Source of the DNA: an uncultured candidate division WWE3 bacterium
GTDB lineage: Bacteria; Patescibacteriota; WWE3; UBA101185; UBA10185
Length of the DNA: 64,000 bases
Reading direction: 5' to 3'
Assembly (NCBI GenBank): GCA_963765125.1
Contig: CAVXUZ010000005.1
Coordinates: 361,441-425,440, forward strand
Shown: piece after piece, positions 11,039 through 43,456 of the stretch
Layout: every line of letters starts with the position of its first letter
How positions within the stretch are numbered: position 1 is the first letter of the stretch
Translations under genes and position numbers: made by a program
Notes under the pieces: model-generated
Told to the model about the DNA's origin: nothing
Databases searched by the model: none
Seen by the model: only the letters and a program-made list of their open reading frames with translations

Positions 11039-11329
11039 TTATTTACCTACCAAATCAATTTTTTGTCCTTCTTTAAGTTTCACAATTGCTTTTTTTCTCT
11101 TAGATGTCTTTGTAAACCTTCTTGTACCGGTAAGTCTTCTTTTCTTTCCTGGTAGTATTGACGTTCTCACATCAATTGGGTCAACTCCGTAAGTCTCTTT
11201 TATTTCTCTTGCAACAGAGCCTTTAGAAGCACGATAGTTTACTTCAAAAATATAAGAATTTATTTCTGACTGCATAGCTACGCTTTTTTCTGTCACTATT
11301 GGTCTTAAAATAATATTGTTTAATTTCAT
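11039..11329 (-). CDS. rplW: 50S ribosomal protein L23
   Basis: 96 aa, L23 family. Confidence 0.9.
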   Translation of the reverse strand: MKLNNIILRPIVTEKSVAMQSEINSYIFEVNYRASKGSVAREIKETYGVDPIDVRTSILPGKKRRLTGTRRFTKTSKRKKAIVKLKEGQKIDLVGK

Positions 11330-11955
11330 TTATATTTCTTCTGTAAATTAACTAATGCCTCTTTTTCAAAAACTATATTTTTTGCGCTAATTAACTCAAA
11401 TGCATTTAGGTTATCCATCTCATATACACTCGCGGACGTAATGTTTGCAATACTTTTTAAAATGTTTTTGTCCCCTTTAGCGAGGACAAATAGTGTTTTA
11501 CCTGTCAAATCAAGAGTTTCGATTATTTCTTTAATATATTTAGTAGATGGTTTGGTGATTGAAATTGCCTCTAATGCTTTAATTAAGCCCTCATTAAATC
11601 TCATGCTTAATACTGACTGCATAGTTGCTTTTCTCATTTTCTTTGATATTTTCAATGACCAATCCTTAGGTTGTGGGCCATGAGAAGCTCCACCACCTAC
11701 CCAAATAGGACTTCTTGTAGAACCGTGTCTTGCACGACCTGTTCCTTTTTGCTTCCAAGGTTTTACACCTCCACCAGAAACTTCTCCTCTTGTCTTTGTT
11801 TTTACGGTACCTTGTCTCTGGTTGGTTCTATAAACATGAATGTACTGGGCAATTAACGCCTCGTTTACTTCGCAGCCAAAAACTGACTTCTCTAAAGCCA
11901 ACTCTTCTACCTTATTTCCTTTTATGTCTAATACATCTACTTTCATTTTATTCAA
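11326..11955 (-). CDS. rplD: 50S ribosomal protein L4
   Basis: 209 aa, L4 family. Confidence 0.9.
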   Translation of the reverse strand: MNKMKVDVLDIKGNKVEELALEKSVFGCEVNEALIAQYIHVYRTNQRQGTVKTKTRGEVSGGGVKPWKQKGTGRARHGSTRSPIWVGGGASHGPQPKDWSLKISKKMRKATMQSVLSMRFNEGLIKALEAISITKPSTKYIKEIIETLDLTGKTLFVLAKGDKNILKSIANITSASVYEMDNLNAFELISAKNIVFEKEALVNLQKKYK

Positions 11956-38407: not shown

Positions 38408-39685
38408 TTATTCTTTTGGTCTTATTTGAGAAAAACCTACGTATTCTCTCAATACCTCAGGAACAGTTATAGACCCGTCTTCATTTTGATAATTCTCAAG
38501 CACCGCAGCTAAAAGTCTTGGTGACGCAGCAACCGTGTTATTTAATGTGTTTACATATTTAATCTCACCAGTTTTAGTCTTGTACTTCATATTAAGTCTT
38601 CGTGCTTGAAAATCCAAAAAGTAGCTGTCTGAGTGTGTCTCTCTATATTTTTCTTGTGAGGGAAACCACGTTTCAATATCGTATTTCTTTCTCTGACCCG
38701 GTCCCATGTCTCCTGTGCACATAAGAAGTACTTGATAAGCCACACCTAAACCTTTGAGTACTTCCTCAGAATAACCTAACATCTTATCGTGCCATTCACG
38801 TGTAAGCTCCTCGCCCTCAGGTAAAAGTATAACCTGCTCAACTTTTGTAAACTGGTGAACTCTGAAAATTCCTTTTGTGTCTTTTCCATAAGTTCCAATT
38901 TCTCGTCTGTAGCATGGGCTCACCCCAGCTAATTTTATCGGAAGGTCTTCTTCTTTTAAAACCTCACCTGCGTAATAAGATGTCAACGAAACCTCTGCAG
39001 TGCCAATTAAATTTAGTCCGTCTTGAGTTGTGTAGTGGTCCTCAGCCCCCCATGGAAAATATCCAGTGCCAACAAAATAATCCGGTCTAACCATCCACGG
39101 AACTTCCATTATTTCAAATCCCTTTGACTTGATTGTATCCATGGCATAGCGTAGTAACGCGTTGTGAAGTTCAACACCTTCATTTTTTAGAAAGTACGAC
39201 CTAAACCCGCCGATTTTTACTCCTCTTTCTGTATCGATTATGTTTAATGAAACACCCAAATCAAAATGGTTCTTTGGAGCAAAATCAAACTGTTTTATTT
39301 TTCCTTCTTGGCGTAACACTTTATTGCCGCTCTCATCTTTTCCAATAGGTACATCCTGCGCTGGTACATTTGGTACCCACAACATTTTGACATCATACTT
39401 GTCTTTTAAATCTTTTAGCTCAACATCGAGTTTTACAATATCTGCTTTAATTTGAGCTGCTTCTAAAATTAGCTTTTCTTTTGCATCCTTATCTTGAATT
39501 TTTGAAATATCCTCTGAAAGTTGATTTCTCAAACTTCGTTTAACCTCAACTTGTCTTAGTATATCTCTATACTTTTCGTCTAGATCAAGCAATTCATCAA
39601 TATCTACAGTTCCACCAAGCTGCTTATCTAAAATAGCCTTTTTTACTTCTTCTGGATTTTCTCTAATATATTTAATATCAAGCAT
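38408..39685 (-). CDS. serS: seryl-tRNA synthetase
   Basis: 425 aa with an N-terminal coiled coil and class II motifs. Confidence 0.95.
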   Translation of the reverse strand: MLDIKYIRENPEEVKKAILDKQLGGTVDIDELLDLDEKYRDILRQVEVKRSLRNQLSEDISKIQDKDAKEKLILEAAQIKADIVKLDVELKDLKDKYDVKMLWVPNVPAQDVPIGKDESGNKVLRQEGKIKQFDFAPKNHFDLGVSLNIIDTERGVKIGGFRSYFLKNEGVELHNALLRYAMDTIKSKGFEIMEVPWMVRPDYFVGTGYFPWGAEDHYTTQDGLNLIGTAEVSLTSYYAGEVLKEEDLPIKLAGVSPCYRREIGTYGKDTKGIFRVHQFTKVEQVILLPEGEELTREWHDKMLGYSEEVLKGLGVAYQVLLMCTGDMGPGQRKKYDIETWFPSQEKYRETHSDSYFLDFQARRLNMKYKTKTGEIKYVNTLNNTVAASPRLLAAVLENYQNEDGSITVPEVLREYVGFSQIRPKE

Positions 39686-39699
39686 ATTTTTCCTTTTCT

Positions 39700-39900
39700 A
39701 AATTATACGGGCTTGAGGTGCCTTACCTCAAGAAAACAAAAAACCCCAACTACACGTCAGGGTCCATTACGGACGGTGCCACCTGATACTTTTAACTTTA
39801 AAGGCTGTAACGTGCCCACACGGCTATGGCATTTCCTCCATGCAGCTCAAAGGGTGGAAACTTCCCTTATCTAAGCTTTTTTGTAATACTTATATATAAT
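39700..39900 (-). promoter_or_regulatory. GC-rich structured 5' leader of serS with a T-box-like motif (AUCAGGUGGCACCGUCCG), downstream U-rich tract and an 8-bp hairpin. T-box riboswitch candidate, or another structured ncRNA.
   Basis: Minus-strand RNA ...GUAUCAGGUGGCACCGUCCGUAAUGGACCCUGACGUGUAGUUGGGGUUUUUUGUUUUCUUGAGGUAAGGCACCUCAAG... directly upstream of the serS AUG. GC content is far above the local background. Confidence 0.3.
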
Positions 39901-39927
39901 AGCTATTAATTAGCGTTGTCAAGAAAT

Positions 39928-40722
39928 ATGATTGGTCCAGAAAAAGCAAAAACAAAAGAAAATCTAGTGAAACGAAAACATCTTTACGATTATGAACTAC
40001 CTAAATCTGATATATACGATAAGGTTGCTGATGAAATTCTCACTCATGATCCCCTCTCTGTTTTAGAAATTGGGTGTGGTGATGGAGAGTTCTTAATTAG
40101 TCTCAGAGAAAAAAATTATAAAGGGCCGCTTACTGGAATCGACGTTTCAAAAGAGCTTATCGAAGAGGCAAATAAGATTAAAAGCGGAAAAGACATATTC
40201 TTTCAAGTTTTAGACGCACACAATATGTCTTTTGTAGACGCGCATTTTGATATTGTTGTCGCAAATTTTACCCTTCATACATTTCGCAATATGCAACAAG
40301 CACTAGATGAAATAAATAGAGTTTTAAAGCCTGAAGGCTATTTTATGGGTGCTGCGCATGGCCGAGGTCATCTTCCGAAAAGAAGAAAATTCACCCAAAT
40401 GGTAGCTGAGCTGCTACCAAACGTAAACTCAAATAATACACTCGGCCGTGTTATGCTAGAAAACCTGCCTACTATACTTACAATGTTTGAACCGCCTATC
40501 ACAGACCAGCACATTGGCGAAATAAAACTCTATAAGCCCGACGTGTACATAGAATATTTTGATACTCTTAAGGATTATGCGTTCTTTCCTCAACCAAACG
40601 ACGAACTCTGGCATGAAGCGTTAAAAGTAATCGAAAAACAAATTCTTGAGGAAATTGAAGCAAATGGGTATTTTTCGGAGACCACGCATTACGGGATGTT
40701 TAAATCTCAAAAACCTTATTAA
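39928..40722 (+). CDS. class I SAM-dependent methyltransferase
   Basis: VLEIGCGDGEF motif I. Possible TTG start at 39916. Confidence 0.6.
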   Translation: MIGPEKAKTKENLVKRKHLYDYELPKSDIYDKVADEILTHDPLSVLEIGCGDGEFLISLREKNYKGPLTGIDVSKELIEEANKIKSGKDIFFQVLDAHNMSFVDAHFDIVVANFTLHTFRNMQQALDEINRVLKPEGYFMGAAHGRGHLPKRRKFTQMVAELLPNVNSNNTLGRVMLENLPTILTMFEPPITDQHIGEIKLYKPDVYIEYFDTLKDYAFFPQPNDELWHEALKVIEKQILEEIEANGYFSETTHYGMFKSQKPY

Positions 40723-41146: not shown

Positions 41147-41533
41147 ATGGCAAGAATGTCGGGAGTTAATATCCCAGATGAAAAAAGACTTATAATTGCC
41201 CTTACATATATCCACGGAATTGGAAAAACCCACTCTGAAGAAATAGTTAAAAAGACAGGTATAAACGAAAGTACAAGAGTAAAAGATCTAACAGACGCAG
41301 ATTTGGCAAAAATCCAAACCGTAATCAACGAATTACAAATTCCGGTTGAGGGAGAGTTAAGAAGAATAATAAGCCAGAATGTAAGAAGACTTATGGACAT
41401 CAAATCATACAGAGGTTTACGACACAGAGATGGATTACCAGTAAGGGGCCAGGCAACTAGCCACAACGCAAGAACAAGAAAGGGTAAGAAAAAAACCGTC
41501 GGTGGTATGAAAAAGAAACTAACTAAGAAATAA
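41147..41533 (+). CDS. rpsM: 30S ribosomal protein S13
   Basis: [10 protein letters not shown]...YIHGIG motif. Confidence 0.95.
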
Positions 41534-41539
41534 ATAATT

Positions 41540-41914
41540 ATGGCAAAAAAGACTAAAGAAAAAATAATACCAACAACAGGAAGAGCCTATATTAAGGCTG
41601 GATTTAACAACACACTTGTTACAATCACAGACGCTGAGGGAAATTCACTTTTCTCCGGTAGTGCAGGTGGCGCAGGTTTTAAAGGTTCAAGAAAATCAAC
41701 ACCTTACGCTGCAACAAAAACAACAGAAGAAATTGCTAGAAGAGCATCAGCAGCTGGATTAAGAGAAGTATCAGTTGTAGTTAAAGGACCAGGACTTGGA
41801 AGAGTTCCCGCAATAAAAGCGTTAAAAACAGGAGGACTAAACGTAGTATCAATTTCTGACGCTACACCTATTCCACATAATGGGTGCAGACCTAAAAAGA
41901 GACGAAGAGTTTAA
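41540..41914 (+). CDS. rpsK: 30S ribosomal protein S11
   Basis: 124 aa, S11 family. Confidence 0.95.
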
Positions 41915-41916
41915 AA

Positions 41917-42519
41917 ATGGCAAGAAATAAAGGACCAAAATGTAGACTGTGCAGAAGAGAGGGTGAAAAACTCTATCTTAAAGGTACAAGATGCCACACA
42001 GATAAATGTGCGATTACAAAAAGAAACTACGCGCCAGGTCAACACGGCAACTCAAGAACAAGACTATCAGACTATGGAAAACAGTTAAGAGAAAAGCAAA
42101 AAGCAAAAAGAGTATACGGAGTTCTTGAAAAACAATTTAGAATCTACGTAAACGCTGCTATGAAATCAAAAGGCGTTACAGGCGAGGCTTTGTTAAAACA
42201 TCTTGAGGCAAGACTCGATAATTTGGTCTATAGAAGTGGTTTTTGTGTTTCTAGAGCACAGGCAAGACAACTTATTAGATCTGGATTTTTTGAGGTTAAC
42301 GGTAAAGTGGTTAGAACAACGTCAATACAGCTTAATGTAGGAGATATATTAAAACCAGTCGATTTCGGTCGAGTTCACCTTAGAGAAGGTTTTGCTATGC
42401 CTGAGTGGCTTGAAGCAAACGTTAAAGAAAAATACGTAAAATTTGTTAAACTGCCTACGTTAGATGATTCTCTAGAAAATATAAATATACAATTAATTAT
42501 TGAATACTATTCAAGATAA
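41917..42519 (+). CDS. rpsD: 30S ribosomal protein S4
   Basis: 200 aa with an N-terminal zinc-ribbon-like Cys cluster and S4 domain. Confidence 0.95.
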   Translation: MARNKGPKCRLCRREGEKLYLKGTRCHTDKCAITKRNYAPGQHGNSRTRLSDYGKQLREKQKAKRVYGVLEKQFRIYVNAAMKSKGVTGEALLKHLEARLDNLVYRSGFCVSRAQARQLIRSGFFEVNGKVVRTTSIQLNVGDILKPVDFGRVHLREGFAMPEWLEANVKEKYVKFVKLPTLDDSLENINIQLIIEYYSR

Positions 42520-42529
42520 AGGAGATTTT

Positions 42530-43456
42530 ATGGAAATTAAACCAAGTGATCTAAAAATAAAAACAATCTCAGAAACAAAGACTGAGGGTGTTTTCGAATT
42601 CGATCCGCTACCAAAAGGTTTCGGACATACTTTAGGAAACACTCTGAGAAGAGTACTTCTTACATCGCTTCCTGGCGCTGCAGTTACTCAGATAAAAATT
42701 GAGGGTGCAAACCATCAATTTGCAACACTAGAAGGTGTAAAAGAAGACATTGTTGAAATAATTTTAAATCTTAAAAAAATCAGAATTAAGAAACATAGCA
42801 ATAATCCAGAAGTTGCAACTATCAATGTTGAAGGACCTGGTGTCGTTACAGCTGACGCGATTGAAACCACTTCTGATCTAGAAATTATCAACAAAGATCT
42901 ACACATAGCTACGTTAGCAAATAAAAAAACAAAGCTAAACATCGAACTTATTGTTGAAAATGGTGTTGGTTATTCTCCTATGGAAGATAGACAAAGCTCA
43001 AAGGTTGGAGTAATAGTTATTGACGCACTTTTCTCACCAGTTATTAAAGCAGTTATGGAGATTGAGGACACAAGATCAGGTGAAAAAACTGACCTCGATA
43101 AACTAATCCTTACAGTTGAAACAGACGGAAGCATGAAACCTTCAACAGCTGTTTATAAATCTTCAGCAATTCTTTCAGATTTCTTTGGAATACTTTCAAG
43201 ATGGGAACAAGCCGTCGATGAAAAACCAGAGATGGTTGACGCAATTACATCAGAGTCACATCATATGGATGAGGTTCTCGTCGATGAATTGCCACTTCAA
43301 ACTAGAACTGTTAACGCTTTGAAAAAAGCAGGAATTGACACATTAGCGCAACTTTCAAAAAAAACCGCAGAAGACTTAGCAGACATTAAAAATCTCGGTG
43401 AGAAATCAATCACTGAAATCAACAAATTACTCAAAAAAGAAGGGCTAAGAGACTAA
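42530..43456 (+). CDS. rpoA: DNA-directed RNA polymerase alpha subunit
   Basis: AAGGAG RBS, then MEIKPSDLKIKTI..., alpha NTD and CTD. Confidence 0.95.
   Translation: MEIKPSDLKIKTISETKTEGVFEFDPLPKGFGHTLGNTLRRVLLTSLPGAAVTQIKIEGANHQFATLEGVKEDIVEIILNLKKIRIKKHSNNPEVATINVEGPGVVTADAIETTSDLEIINKDLHIATLANKKTKLNIELIVENGVGYSPMEDRQSSKVGVIVIDALFSPVIKAVMEIEDTRSGEKTDLDKLILTVETDGSMKPSTAVYKSSAILSDFFGILSRWEQAVDEKPEMVDAITSESHHMDEVLVDELPLQTRTVNALKKAGIDTLAQLSKKTAEDLADIKNLGEKSITEINKLLKKEGLRD

Follow-up and report, generated by a model that had tools for sequence, protein, structure and literature searches.

We analysed a stretch of 64,000 nucleotides from an uncultured candidate division WWE3 bacterium (assembly GCA_963765125.1, contig CAVXUZ010000005.1, positions 361,441 to 425,440), here referred to as the window; all coordinates are those of the window unless a homologous locus is named. 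The window carries serS, coding for seryl-tRNA synthetase (SerRS), on its minus strand, separated by a gap of 230 bp from a divergently oriented class I methyltransferase gene. The subject of this report is the serS leader RNA encoded in this gap, to which an earlier note, made from the sequence alone, had drawn attention. That note had assigned both flanking genes correctly; the serS product matches the equivalog model TIGR00414 with 430.8 bits (cut-off 301.65) and carries the Pfam domains Seryl_tRNA_N and tRNA-synt_2b. The note had also considered the gap to be far more GC-rich than its surroundings. This is the case with respect to the immediate flanks (0.28-0.33, compared to 0.44-0.51 across positions 39700-39850) but not with respect to all surroundings, as parts of the serS coding region are locally equally GC-high (0.44-0.46).

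The leader was read on the serS-sense (minus) strand and spans positions 39877-39733. It is best read as a compact T-box in which Stem I is ultrashort, the distal platform for the tRNA elbow is absent, Stem II is truncated, and Stem III is lacking. We consider it highly probable that it is a serine-specific T-box riboswitch which controls serS by transcription attenuation. This interpretation is carried by the anatomy of the leader, by its conservation and covariation among homologues, by a switch between serine codons, and by two mutually exclusive folds. The features are collected in Table 1.

Table 1. Features of the serS leader and of its downstream region in the window.
Feature	Position	Strand	Details
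Probable leader promoter	39922-39917 (-35), 39898-39893 (-10)	minus	TTGACA, 18-nt spacer, TATATA; read from sequence
Stem I domain with K-turn	39844..39877	minus	segmentation and covariation
Specifier loop	39855..39863	minus	AAGUUUCCA; proposed codon UCC 39858-39856, then purine A39855 abutting the 3' helix strand
Stem II	39823..39843	minus	6 bp, GCAUGG / CCAU(A)GC, one bulged A; 8-nt purine-rich loop at 39837-39830
Stem IIA hairpin and F-box-like element	39803..39822	minus	CGU(G) / (C)ACG 39822-39811, then UUACAGCC 39810-39803
A-rich linker	39787..39802	minus	UUUAAAGUUAAAAGUA, 16 nt
Antiterminator (discriminator)	39757..39786	minus	A1 UCAGG 39786-39782 / CCUGA 39761-39757
T-box bulge	39781-39775	minus	UGGCACC, 7 nt, between helices A1 and A2
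Helix A2	39774-39771 / 39765-39762	minus	GUCC / GGAC, loop GUAAU; covariation
Intrinsic terminator	39733..39765	minus	GGACCCUGAC 39765-39756, loop GUGUA, GUUGGGGUUU 39750-39741, then UUUGUUUU to 39733
Perfect 8-bp hairpin	39712..39732	minus	CUUGAGGU-AAGGC-ACCUCAAG; directly after the U-run, 5' of the serS ribosome-binding site
serS, regulated gene	38408..39695	minus	ribosome-binding site AAGGA 39695-39691, ATG 39685, stop 38408; 425 aa

Up to the end of the antiterminator, the leader has a length of about 125 nt. A kink-turn (K-turn) is predicted at the base of Stem I, with the C-stem AGC 39877-39875 / GCU 39846-39844, a bulge UUA, and a tandem GA at 39871-39870 opposite to GA at 39848-39847. 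The same layout is found in three of the homologous loci described below (L046, L049, and L040), while A-A or A-U variants occur in other leaders. Only 19 nt lie between the K-turn strands, consisting of a 5-bp helix (AAGGG 39868-39864 / CCCUU 39854-39850) and a 9-nt loop; the AG bulge and the distal loop are absent. A long Stem I with the distal motifs AGNGA/GNUGA, as envisaged in the earlier note, is thus not present, but the serine specifier that it had envisaged is, as UCC followed by A in an ultrashort hairpin loop.

The IIA hairpin (CGUG-UGGG-CACG) adjoins an F-box-like CGUUA; the corresponding region of other leaders reads CGG(G)...(C)CCG, followed by UUA, UAA or UCA and by NAGC. Given the compensatory changes in its third pair (window) and fourth pair (L046), IIA may instead be a plain 4-bp tetraloop hairpin. 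Inspection of the sequence revealed no convincing Stem III hairpin in the linker of the window, and such hairpins are seen in only some of the relatives (L001, L014, L017, L026, and L004).

The T-box-like core that had been quoted from the sequence, AUCAGGUGGCACCGUCCG, is located at 39787-39770. The string GGTGGNACCG occurs once in the window (0.12 occurrences expected), and among the 12 TGGNACC sites of the window only that in the serS leader is flanked by two nested helices. The small GUCC/GGAC hairpin (39774-39762) which had been described as following the T-box sequence, is the antiterminator helix A2, with UGGCACC as the 7-nt bulge. Likewise, the U-rich tract GGGGUUUUUUGUUUU (39747-39733) exists and is the tail of a terminator, detected by a terminator scan, the 5' arm of which (GGACCCUGAC) overlaps the antiterminator. 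The antiterminator uses this arm as its 3' half, so that the two folds are mutually exclusive. The computed folding energies (-12.5 kcal/mol for the terminator, -9.0 kcal/mol for the antiterminator) are inside the ranges reported by TBDB (-19.5+/-7.9 and -7.4+/-4.2 kcal/mol, respectively), and the order of stability is the same as in known T-boxes.

All strings quoted in the earlier note, including the 8-bp hairpin and the ribosome-binding site, are encoded on the minus strand. The 8-bp hairpin is perfect, as described, but lies outside the conserved element: it is not kept in L046, L002, L055, and L001, and the closest relatives have another hairpin or none. It may stabilise the 5' end of the transcript, may reflect a second promoter, or may have no role at all.

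Judged from its sequence, the TTGACA-18-TATATA element is probably the leader promoter. It is identical in the closest relative, L046, and in the remaining leaders a TATAAT-like -10 element is found 10-25 nt 5' of the base of Stem I. In the window, this promoter was not flagged by a consensus scan because its -10 element lacks the final T.

Homologous leaders and covariation

Searches with SerRS yielded 26 loci from genomes and 19 from metagenomes, and exact-protein look-ups of the closest SerRS relatives added 11 more. Those loci that have names belong to the Candidate Phyla Radiation (CPR, Patescibacteria), candidate division WWE3 being the label of the closest ones. Leaders were detected by a motif scan and by a covariance model (CM) built from the window and L046. 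The same modules were found in the same order in 20 further distinct loci (L001, L002, L004, L005, L009, L010, L014, L017, L018, L023, L026, L037, L039, L040, L042, L046, L049, L052, L053, and L055).

The single-sequence folding energy is not exceptional on either strand (z = -1.1 and -0.9), and the claim for a structure therefore rests on comparative evidence. Nineteen leaders were aligned by hand. Positions in the C-stem, Stem I, Stem II, A1, and A2 are each occupied by several standard pair types in this alignment, with a handful of non-pairs. Stem I occurs as AAGGG/CCCUU, GAGGG/CCCUC, GUGAG/CUCAC, GGCAG/CUGCC, and GGUGA/UCACC. For Stem II, there are 2-5 standard pair types per position and non-pairs in one of 114 cells. 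The third pair of IIA is U-A in the window and G-C elsewhere, which is a compensatory change, and the fourth pair is A-U in L046. A1 and A2 covary in the 21 leaders. Variants of A1 are UCAGG/CCUGA, UCGGG/CCCGG, AGAGG/CCUCU, GGGG/CCCC, and GAAGGC/GCCUC; those of A2 are GUCC/GGAC, GCC/GGU, UUCCAU/AUGGAA, and GUCUUCG/CGAAGAC.

A CM alignment, which is fitted to the structure, comprises 478 cells in 26 pairs. Pairing is observed in 95.8% of the cells (71.2% in shuffles), and both sides change in 23 of the 26 pairs. The covariation score is 0.542, compared to 0.153 in shuffles, and not one of 500 shuffles reaches the observed value. When partners were slid by 1-3 columns as a control, pairing fell to 25-49%. 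All five pairs of Stem I change on both sides, as do all six of Stem II, where 99.2% of the cells are paired.

As an independent check, RNAalifold was applied to an unfitted MAFFT alignment of seven leaders. It recovered Stem II, IIA, A1 with the 7-nt bulge, and A2, and 10 of the 18 predicted pairs were compensated. Stem I was not recovered from this alignment because MAFFT misaligns it, the loops having 7 or 9 nt and the codon register being shifted. Covariation in homologous loci, which had been named as a check on the T-box idea, is seen in the hand alignment, the CM alignment, and the RNAalifold prediction. The single-sequence minimum free energy folds also suggest that Stem I might pair differently, as AGCUUAGA/UUUGAGCU with GGA/UCC; this was discarded, being unsupported by the homologues.

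Of the 19 aligned leaders, 17 have a hairpin which includes the 3' strand of A1 and runs into a U-run, 50-190 nt 5' of the start codon. In L052 (~600-652) and L053 (~610-663), both with the codon UCC, a hairpin that competes with the antiterminator is present without a U-run; the read-out may therefore be different there.

The homologues vary in their degree of reduction and in their genomic context. In L005, the leader is located 750 nt 5' of serS, before a gene for a SerB-like HAD-IB phosphatase (856-1494; TIGR00338 92.7 bits, below the cut-off), which is itself directly followed by serS. This leader (566-751) is of the UCC class and has a terminator with U7. From its gene order, L005 looks like a small serine regulon under a single T-box. 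A more reduced T-box is encountered upstream of serS in L004 (1366-1478). It has the K-turn; its Stem I consists of 4 bp and the loop UCUAGCAG (AGC), its Stem III reads UCCCA-GUUU-UGGGA, and its antiterminator is GGGGAG-[UGGCACC]-..-CUCCUC. Stem II and IIA/B are absent. Between the end of this leader and the ATG there are 24 nt; a U-run terminator is missing, and a Shine-Dalgarno (SD) sequence is not evident. In the AGC-class leaders from L010, L014, L017, L018, L023, and L026, an extra hairpin comes after the specifier hairpin and before the 3' strand of the basal helix, which results in a three-way junction; its loop is CCAAGUGGG in L014, L017, and L026. In L048, a close relative devoid of a T-box, a different hairpin, GCGAG-AACUC-CUCGC, and a GGGUGGGUUUUUUU tract are found just 5' of serS (~640-690).

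Proposed serine specificity and mechanism

In nine leaders, including that of the window, the Stem I loop has UUUCC(A/G) at its 3' end. The other twelve have YUAGC(A/C)N, and thus the codon AGC, in the equivalent hairpin loop. The meaning serine is the sole common ground of UCC and AGC. Both end with C, and a preference for C in the third position has been reported for T-box specifiers. The fourth base of the T-box bulge is C in 14 leaders (UGGC) and U in seven (UGGU), but never a purine. The discriminator base of bacterial tRNA-Ser is G73, while that of tRNA-Phe is A73. The bulge sequences would thus be compatible with tRNA-Ser but not with tRNA-Phe.

We infer tRNA binding and the regulatory output from the mechanism of the T-box family. 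Transcription would start a few bases 5' of 39877, and the nascent RNA would fold into the K-turn, a Stem I that presents UCC and the following A, Stem II with its purine-rich loop, and IIA with the F-box. The modules of Stem I, Stem II, and IIA would then bind the anticodon GGA of tRNA-Ser through UCC. If this tRNA is uncharged, its 3' end GCCA would pair with UGGC and stabilise the weaker antiterminator (39786-39757), resulting in readthrough into serS. If it is charged or absent, the terminator (39765-39741) with its U-run would form, and transcription would stop before serS. More speculatively, the conserved U residues 5' of the codon might extend the pairing to A37/A38 of the tRNA, and the purine-rich loop of Stem II might contact the codon-anticodon helix in its minor groove.

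Counter-evidence and alternative readings

Several observations weigh against a serine-specific T-box that acts on transcription. An Rfam search of positions 39600-40000 at E<=10 gave no match to the T-box family (RF00230), to the signal recognition particle (SRP) RNA or to 6S RNA on either strand, and at the gathering score (93 bits) RF00230 matches none of the loci L001-L020 and is not found at any locus. Many serS relatives, some of them close, have no leader according to the motif scan and the CM. Stem II, with 6 bp and the 8-nt loop AGGAAAUG, is too short for a canonical S-turn. In the hand-alignment data, the IIB pseudoknot shows no covariation, and most sequences have a mismatch in its third pair; IIB would amount to two invariant G-C pairs. 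The terminator is modest, with four G-U pairs among its 10 bp. A promoter-like TTGAGG-18-TATAAT (39731-39702), which overlaps the 8-bp hairpin, is located 3' of the terminator and would, if real, bypass the switch. The codon register is shifted by one base between the 7-nt loops (UCC at loop positions 4-6, AGC at 3-5), and the class represented by the window would give UUC, a phenylalanine codon, if read at loop positions 3-5. No tRNA or tmRNA gene was found in the window (1-64000) and no tRNA gene in the 54 fetched loci, so that these provide no cognate GGA anticodon or G73. Finally, transcriptional T-boxes are generally held to need a long Stem I, for kinetic reasons related to fast tRNA capture (2020 review). 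This long Stem I marks the canonical class I rather than the whole T-box family, as the actinobacterial ileS T-boxes are also devoid of it.

The register shift bears on the possibility that the leader is a T-box of another specificity, with UUC as specifier and tRNA-Phe as ligand, read in the register of the AGC class. Comparison of the 7-nt loops CUUUCCA and UUAGCAG indeed places UUC where AGC is found. However, regulation concerns serS and a SerB-like gene, and in seven of the nine leaders of the UCC class the bulge is UGGC, which by the established rules of tRNA identity pairs with G73 (serine) and not with A73 (phenylalanine). Also, the purine after UCC directly abuts the helix, as in canonical specifier loops. 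We consider a phenylalanine specificity extremely unlikely.

According to another view, the leader is independent of tRNA, or what is encoded here is a small RNA of its own, 6S-like, SRP-like or of another kind, the resemblance to a T-box being due to chance; SerRS or another protein might, for instance, bind it. The unexceptional single-sequence folding would be in line with this, and so would the Rfam results, as no family, including the T-box, matches this region of the window. In fact, no family reaches its gathering score in the whole 64-kb window or in 20 of the loci, and the matches at E<=10 within 39600-40000 (TCV_H4, DUF2815, a folP 16-mer, and psRNA6) are at chance level only. Judged by RF00230 alone, the first check named in the earlier note, with no match to the window at the gathering score or at E<=10, the T-box idea would thus fail. 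The same search speaks against the small RNAs that had been offered as alternatives: neither RF00169 (SRP) nor RF00013 (6S) matches either strand at E<=10, and the SRP, 6S, and other small RNA readings of the leader were rejected. Moreover, the conserved parts coincide with the tRNA contacts of a T-box (the UCC/AGC codon and the UGGN-ACC bulge) and with A1 and A2 overlapped by a terminator.

RF00230 also has significant matches, although below threshold, in two of the homologues: L004 with 45.9 bits (E = 3.8e-7) and L002 with 38.7 bits (E = 2.8e-5). The alignments span the base of the K-turn, Stem II, IIA/F-box with CCGUUA, and the antiterminator, but delete about 70-76 positions of the Stem I model (about 76 in L002). 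For L002, CGG..CCGUUA falls on IIA/F-box of the model, and the 5' part of the leader on the base of the K-turn. The low scores of the homologues are explained by the missing long Stem I. We thus see next to no chance that the leader acts independently of tRNA, while the T-box reading of the earlier note holds, given homologous leaders of the same architecture, their strong covariation, and these two matches.

The leader could also be genuinely derived from a T-box but no longer function as a tRNA switch. It would then be a relic or a constitutive attenuator, and serS would be expressed mainly from TTGAGG-18-TATAAT. This would account for a promoter-like site downstream of the terminator, for the weakness of the latter, and for the patchy occurrence of the leader among close relatives. 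Against this, every module is intact in the window, and deviations are compensated (the third pair of IIA from G-C to U-A, and A-U/G-C in Stem I), which indicates continued selection on the structure of the leader. The consensus scan returned one promoter site where 3.7 are expected, so that the match to TTGAGG-18-TATAAT is not above chance, and this element is not kept in L046. A relic is, in our view, very unlikely.

A further alternative is a T-box-like leader which binds tRNA but acts post-transcriptionally, on translation or on mRNA stability, like the ileS T-boxes of Actinobacteria. An ultrashort Stem I has so far been tied to translational control, and in L004, L052, and L053 no clear U-run follows the discriminator. 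In the window, however, the ribosome-binding site (39695-39691) is more than 60 nt 3' of the 3' strand of the antiterminator, has no complementarity to it, and takes no part in the switch. Furthermore, the alternative helix is followed by UUUUUUGUUUU, and 17 of 19 leaders conserve the combination of hairpin and U-run. We thus regard post-transcriptional action as very improbable, and transcription attenuation remains our preferred reading.

Relation to known T-boxes and further observations in the window

T-boxes have been described from Firmicutes, Actinobacteria, Chloroflexi, and Deinococcus-Thermus. The closest counterparts of the serS leader with respect to Stem I are the actinobacterial ileS T-boxes (class II of TBDB), which have an ultrashort or intermediate Stem I, compensated by Stem II and IIA/B in the ultrashort case, and exert translational control (2020 review). 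Our comparison with them, including the work of Sherwood et al. (2015) and the 2019 structures of ileS T-box-tRNA complexes from M. tuberculosis and N. farcinica, is based on that review. Shared features are the absence of the distal Stem I platform (IDTM), the K-turn at the base of Stem I, a Stem II domain, IIA with an F-box or F-box-like element (CCGUNA) next to the codon, and the UGGN-ACC bulge between A1 and A2; the F-box of N. farcinica is described as CCGUCA in the review. The expression platform is different, consisting of an intrinsic terminator with U-run in the serS leader and of an SD-sequestering helix in ileS T-boxes. Further differences concern the amino acid (serine, with UCC or AGC, compared to isoleucine, with AUC), the host (CPR/Patescibacteria compared to Actinobacteria), and Stem II, which has 6 bp and an 8-nt loop here but is a domain of ~70 nt with an internal S-turn there. 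In addition, the leader in the window has no Stem III.

With the T-boxes of Firmicutes (RF00230, class I), among them that of B. subtilis serS, the leader shares its position upstream of an aminoacyl-tRNA synthetase gene, a serine specifier, a UGGN for pairing with the 3' end of the tRNA, and mutually exclusive antiterminator and terminator folds, of which the terminator is the more stable one. The K-turn, an F-box or F-box-like element, and the T-box sequence are also common to both. In contrast to them, ~70 nt of Stem I are gone, including the AG bulge, the distal loop, and the internal specifier loop with its S-turn. The specifier is positioned in a terminal loop. Stem II is present in truncated form, and there is no Stem III. 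T-boxes of the glyQS type are compact as well, and L004 resembles them further in having no Stem II and no IIA/B while keeping Stem III. The mode of reduction is opposite, however, as glyQS retains the elbow platform on a long Stem I, whereas the leader in the window retains the Stem II domain and has lost the distal part of Stem I.

The T-box family and its mechanism are already known. What appears to be new is that such leaders occur in CPR, that they combine a terminator with an ultrashort Stem I and a truncated Stem II, and that they are invisible to RF00230. A full-text literature search, with incomplete coverage, revealed no paper that links T-boxes to CPR, and CPR are not mentioned in the TBDB paper and its supplements. 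As TBDB contains some class I matches with truncated Stem I, it is possible that such leaders have been sighted before.

Beyond the individual leader, we give even odds to the proposal that CPR/Patescibacteria have their own, as yet unrecognised class of miniature T-boxes (~115-170 nt up to the antiterminator). These would terminate transcription without contact to the tRNA elbow, by means of a specifier in a terminal loop (perhaps with U residues pairing to A37/A38) and a truncated Stem II. If true, co-transcriptional tRNA sensing would not in general require the elbow platform. CPR would then fall within the range of the T-box mechanism, fitting with a T-box in the common ancestor shared with Firmicutes, Actinobacteria, and Chloroflexi. 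A conserved family that pairs an ultrashort Stem I with an intrinsic terminator provides a direct test of the rule that a long Stem I is needed. CPR riboswitch surveys that use RF00230 would undercount regulation by tRNA sensing, because the model misses these leaders. With its ~125 nt, the leader would be a very small natural sensor of tRNA charging, which recommends it for structural studies and for engineering.

CPR bacteria rely on their hosts for amino acids. A sensor for serine charging upstream of serS, and in L005 upstream of a serB-like gene, might be one route by which they monitor this supply.

Some candidates were considered and set aside. The Stem II hairpin of the window (AUGGAGGAAAUGCCAU, 39826-39841, minus strand) agrees exactly, over 16 nt, with positions 4-19 of the Rfam folP RNA (RF02978); a relation to this RNA is not assumed, the match being treated as due to chance (E = 4.3; gathering score 99 bits). 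An open reading frame (ORF) on the plus strand (39713-39874; 53 aa, TTG start) was rejected as a gene, as the substitutions follow the pattern of RNA helices. A second match of the CM in the window (11705-11804, minus strand, E = 0.82) is spurious, being internal to an ORF for a ribosomal protein L4-like protein. This ORF extends over 11326-11955, and additional ribosomal genes (rpsM, rpsK, and rpsD) are found together with rpoA at 41147-43456.

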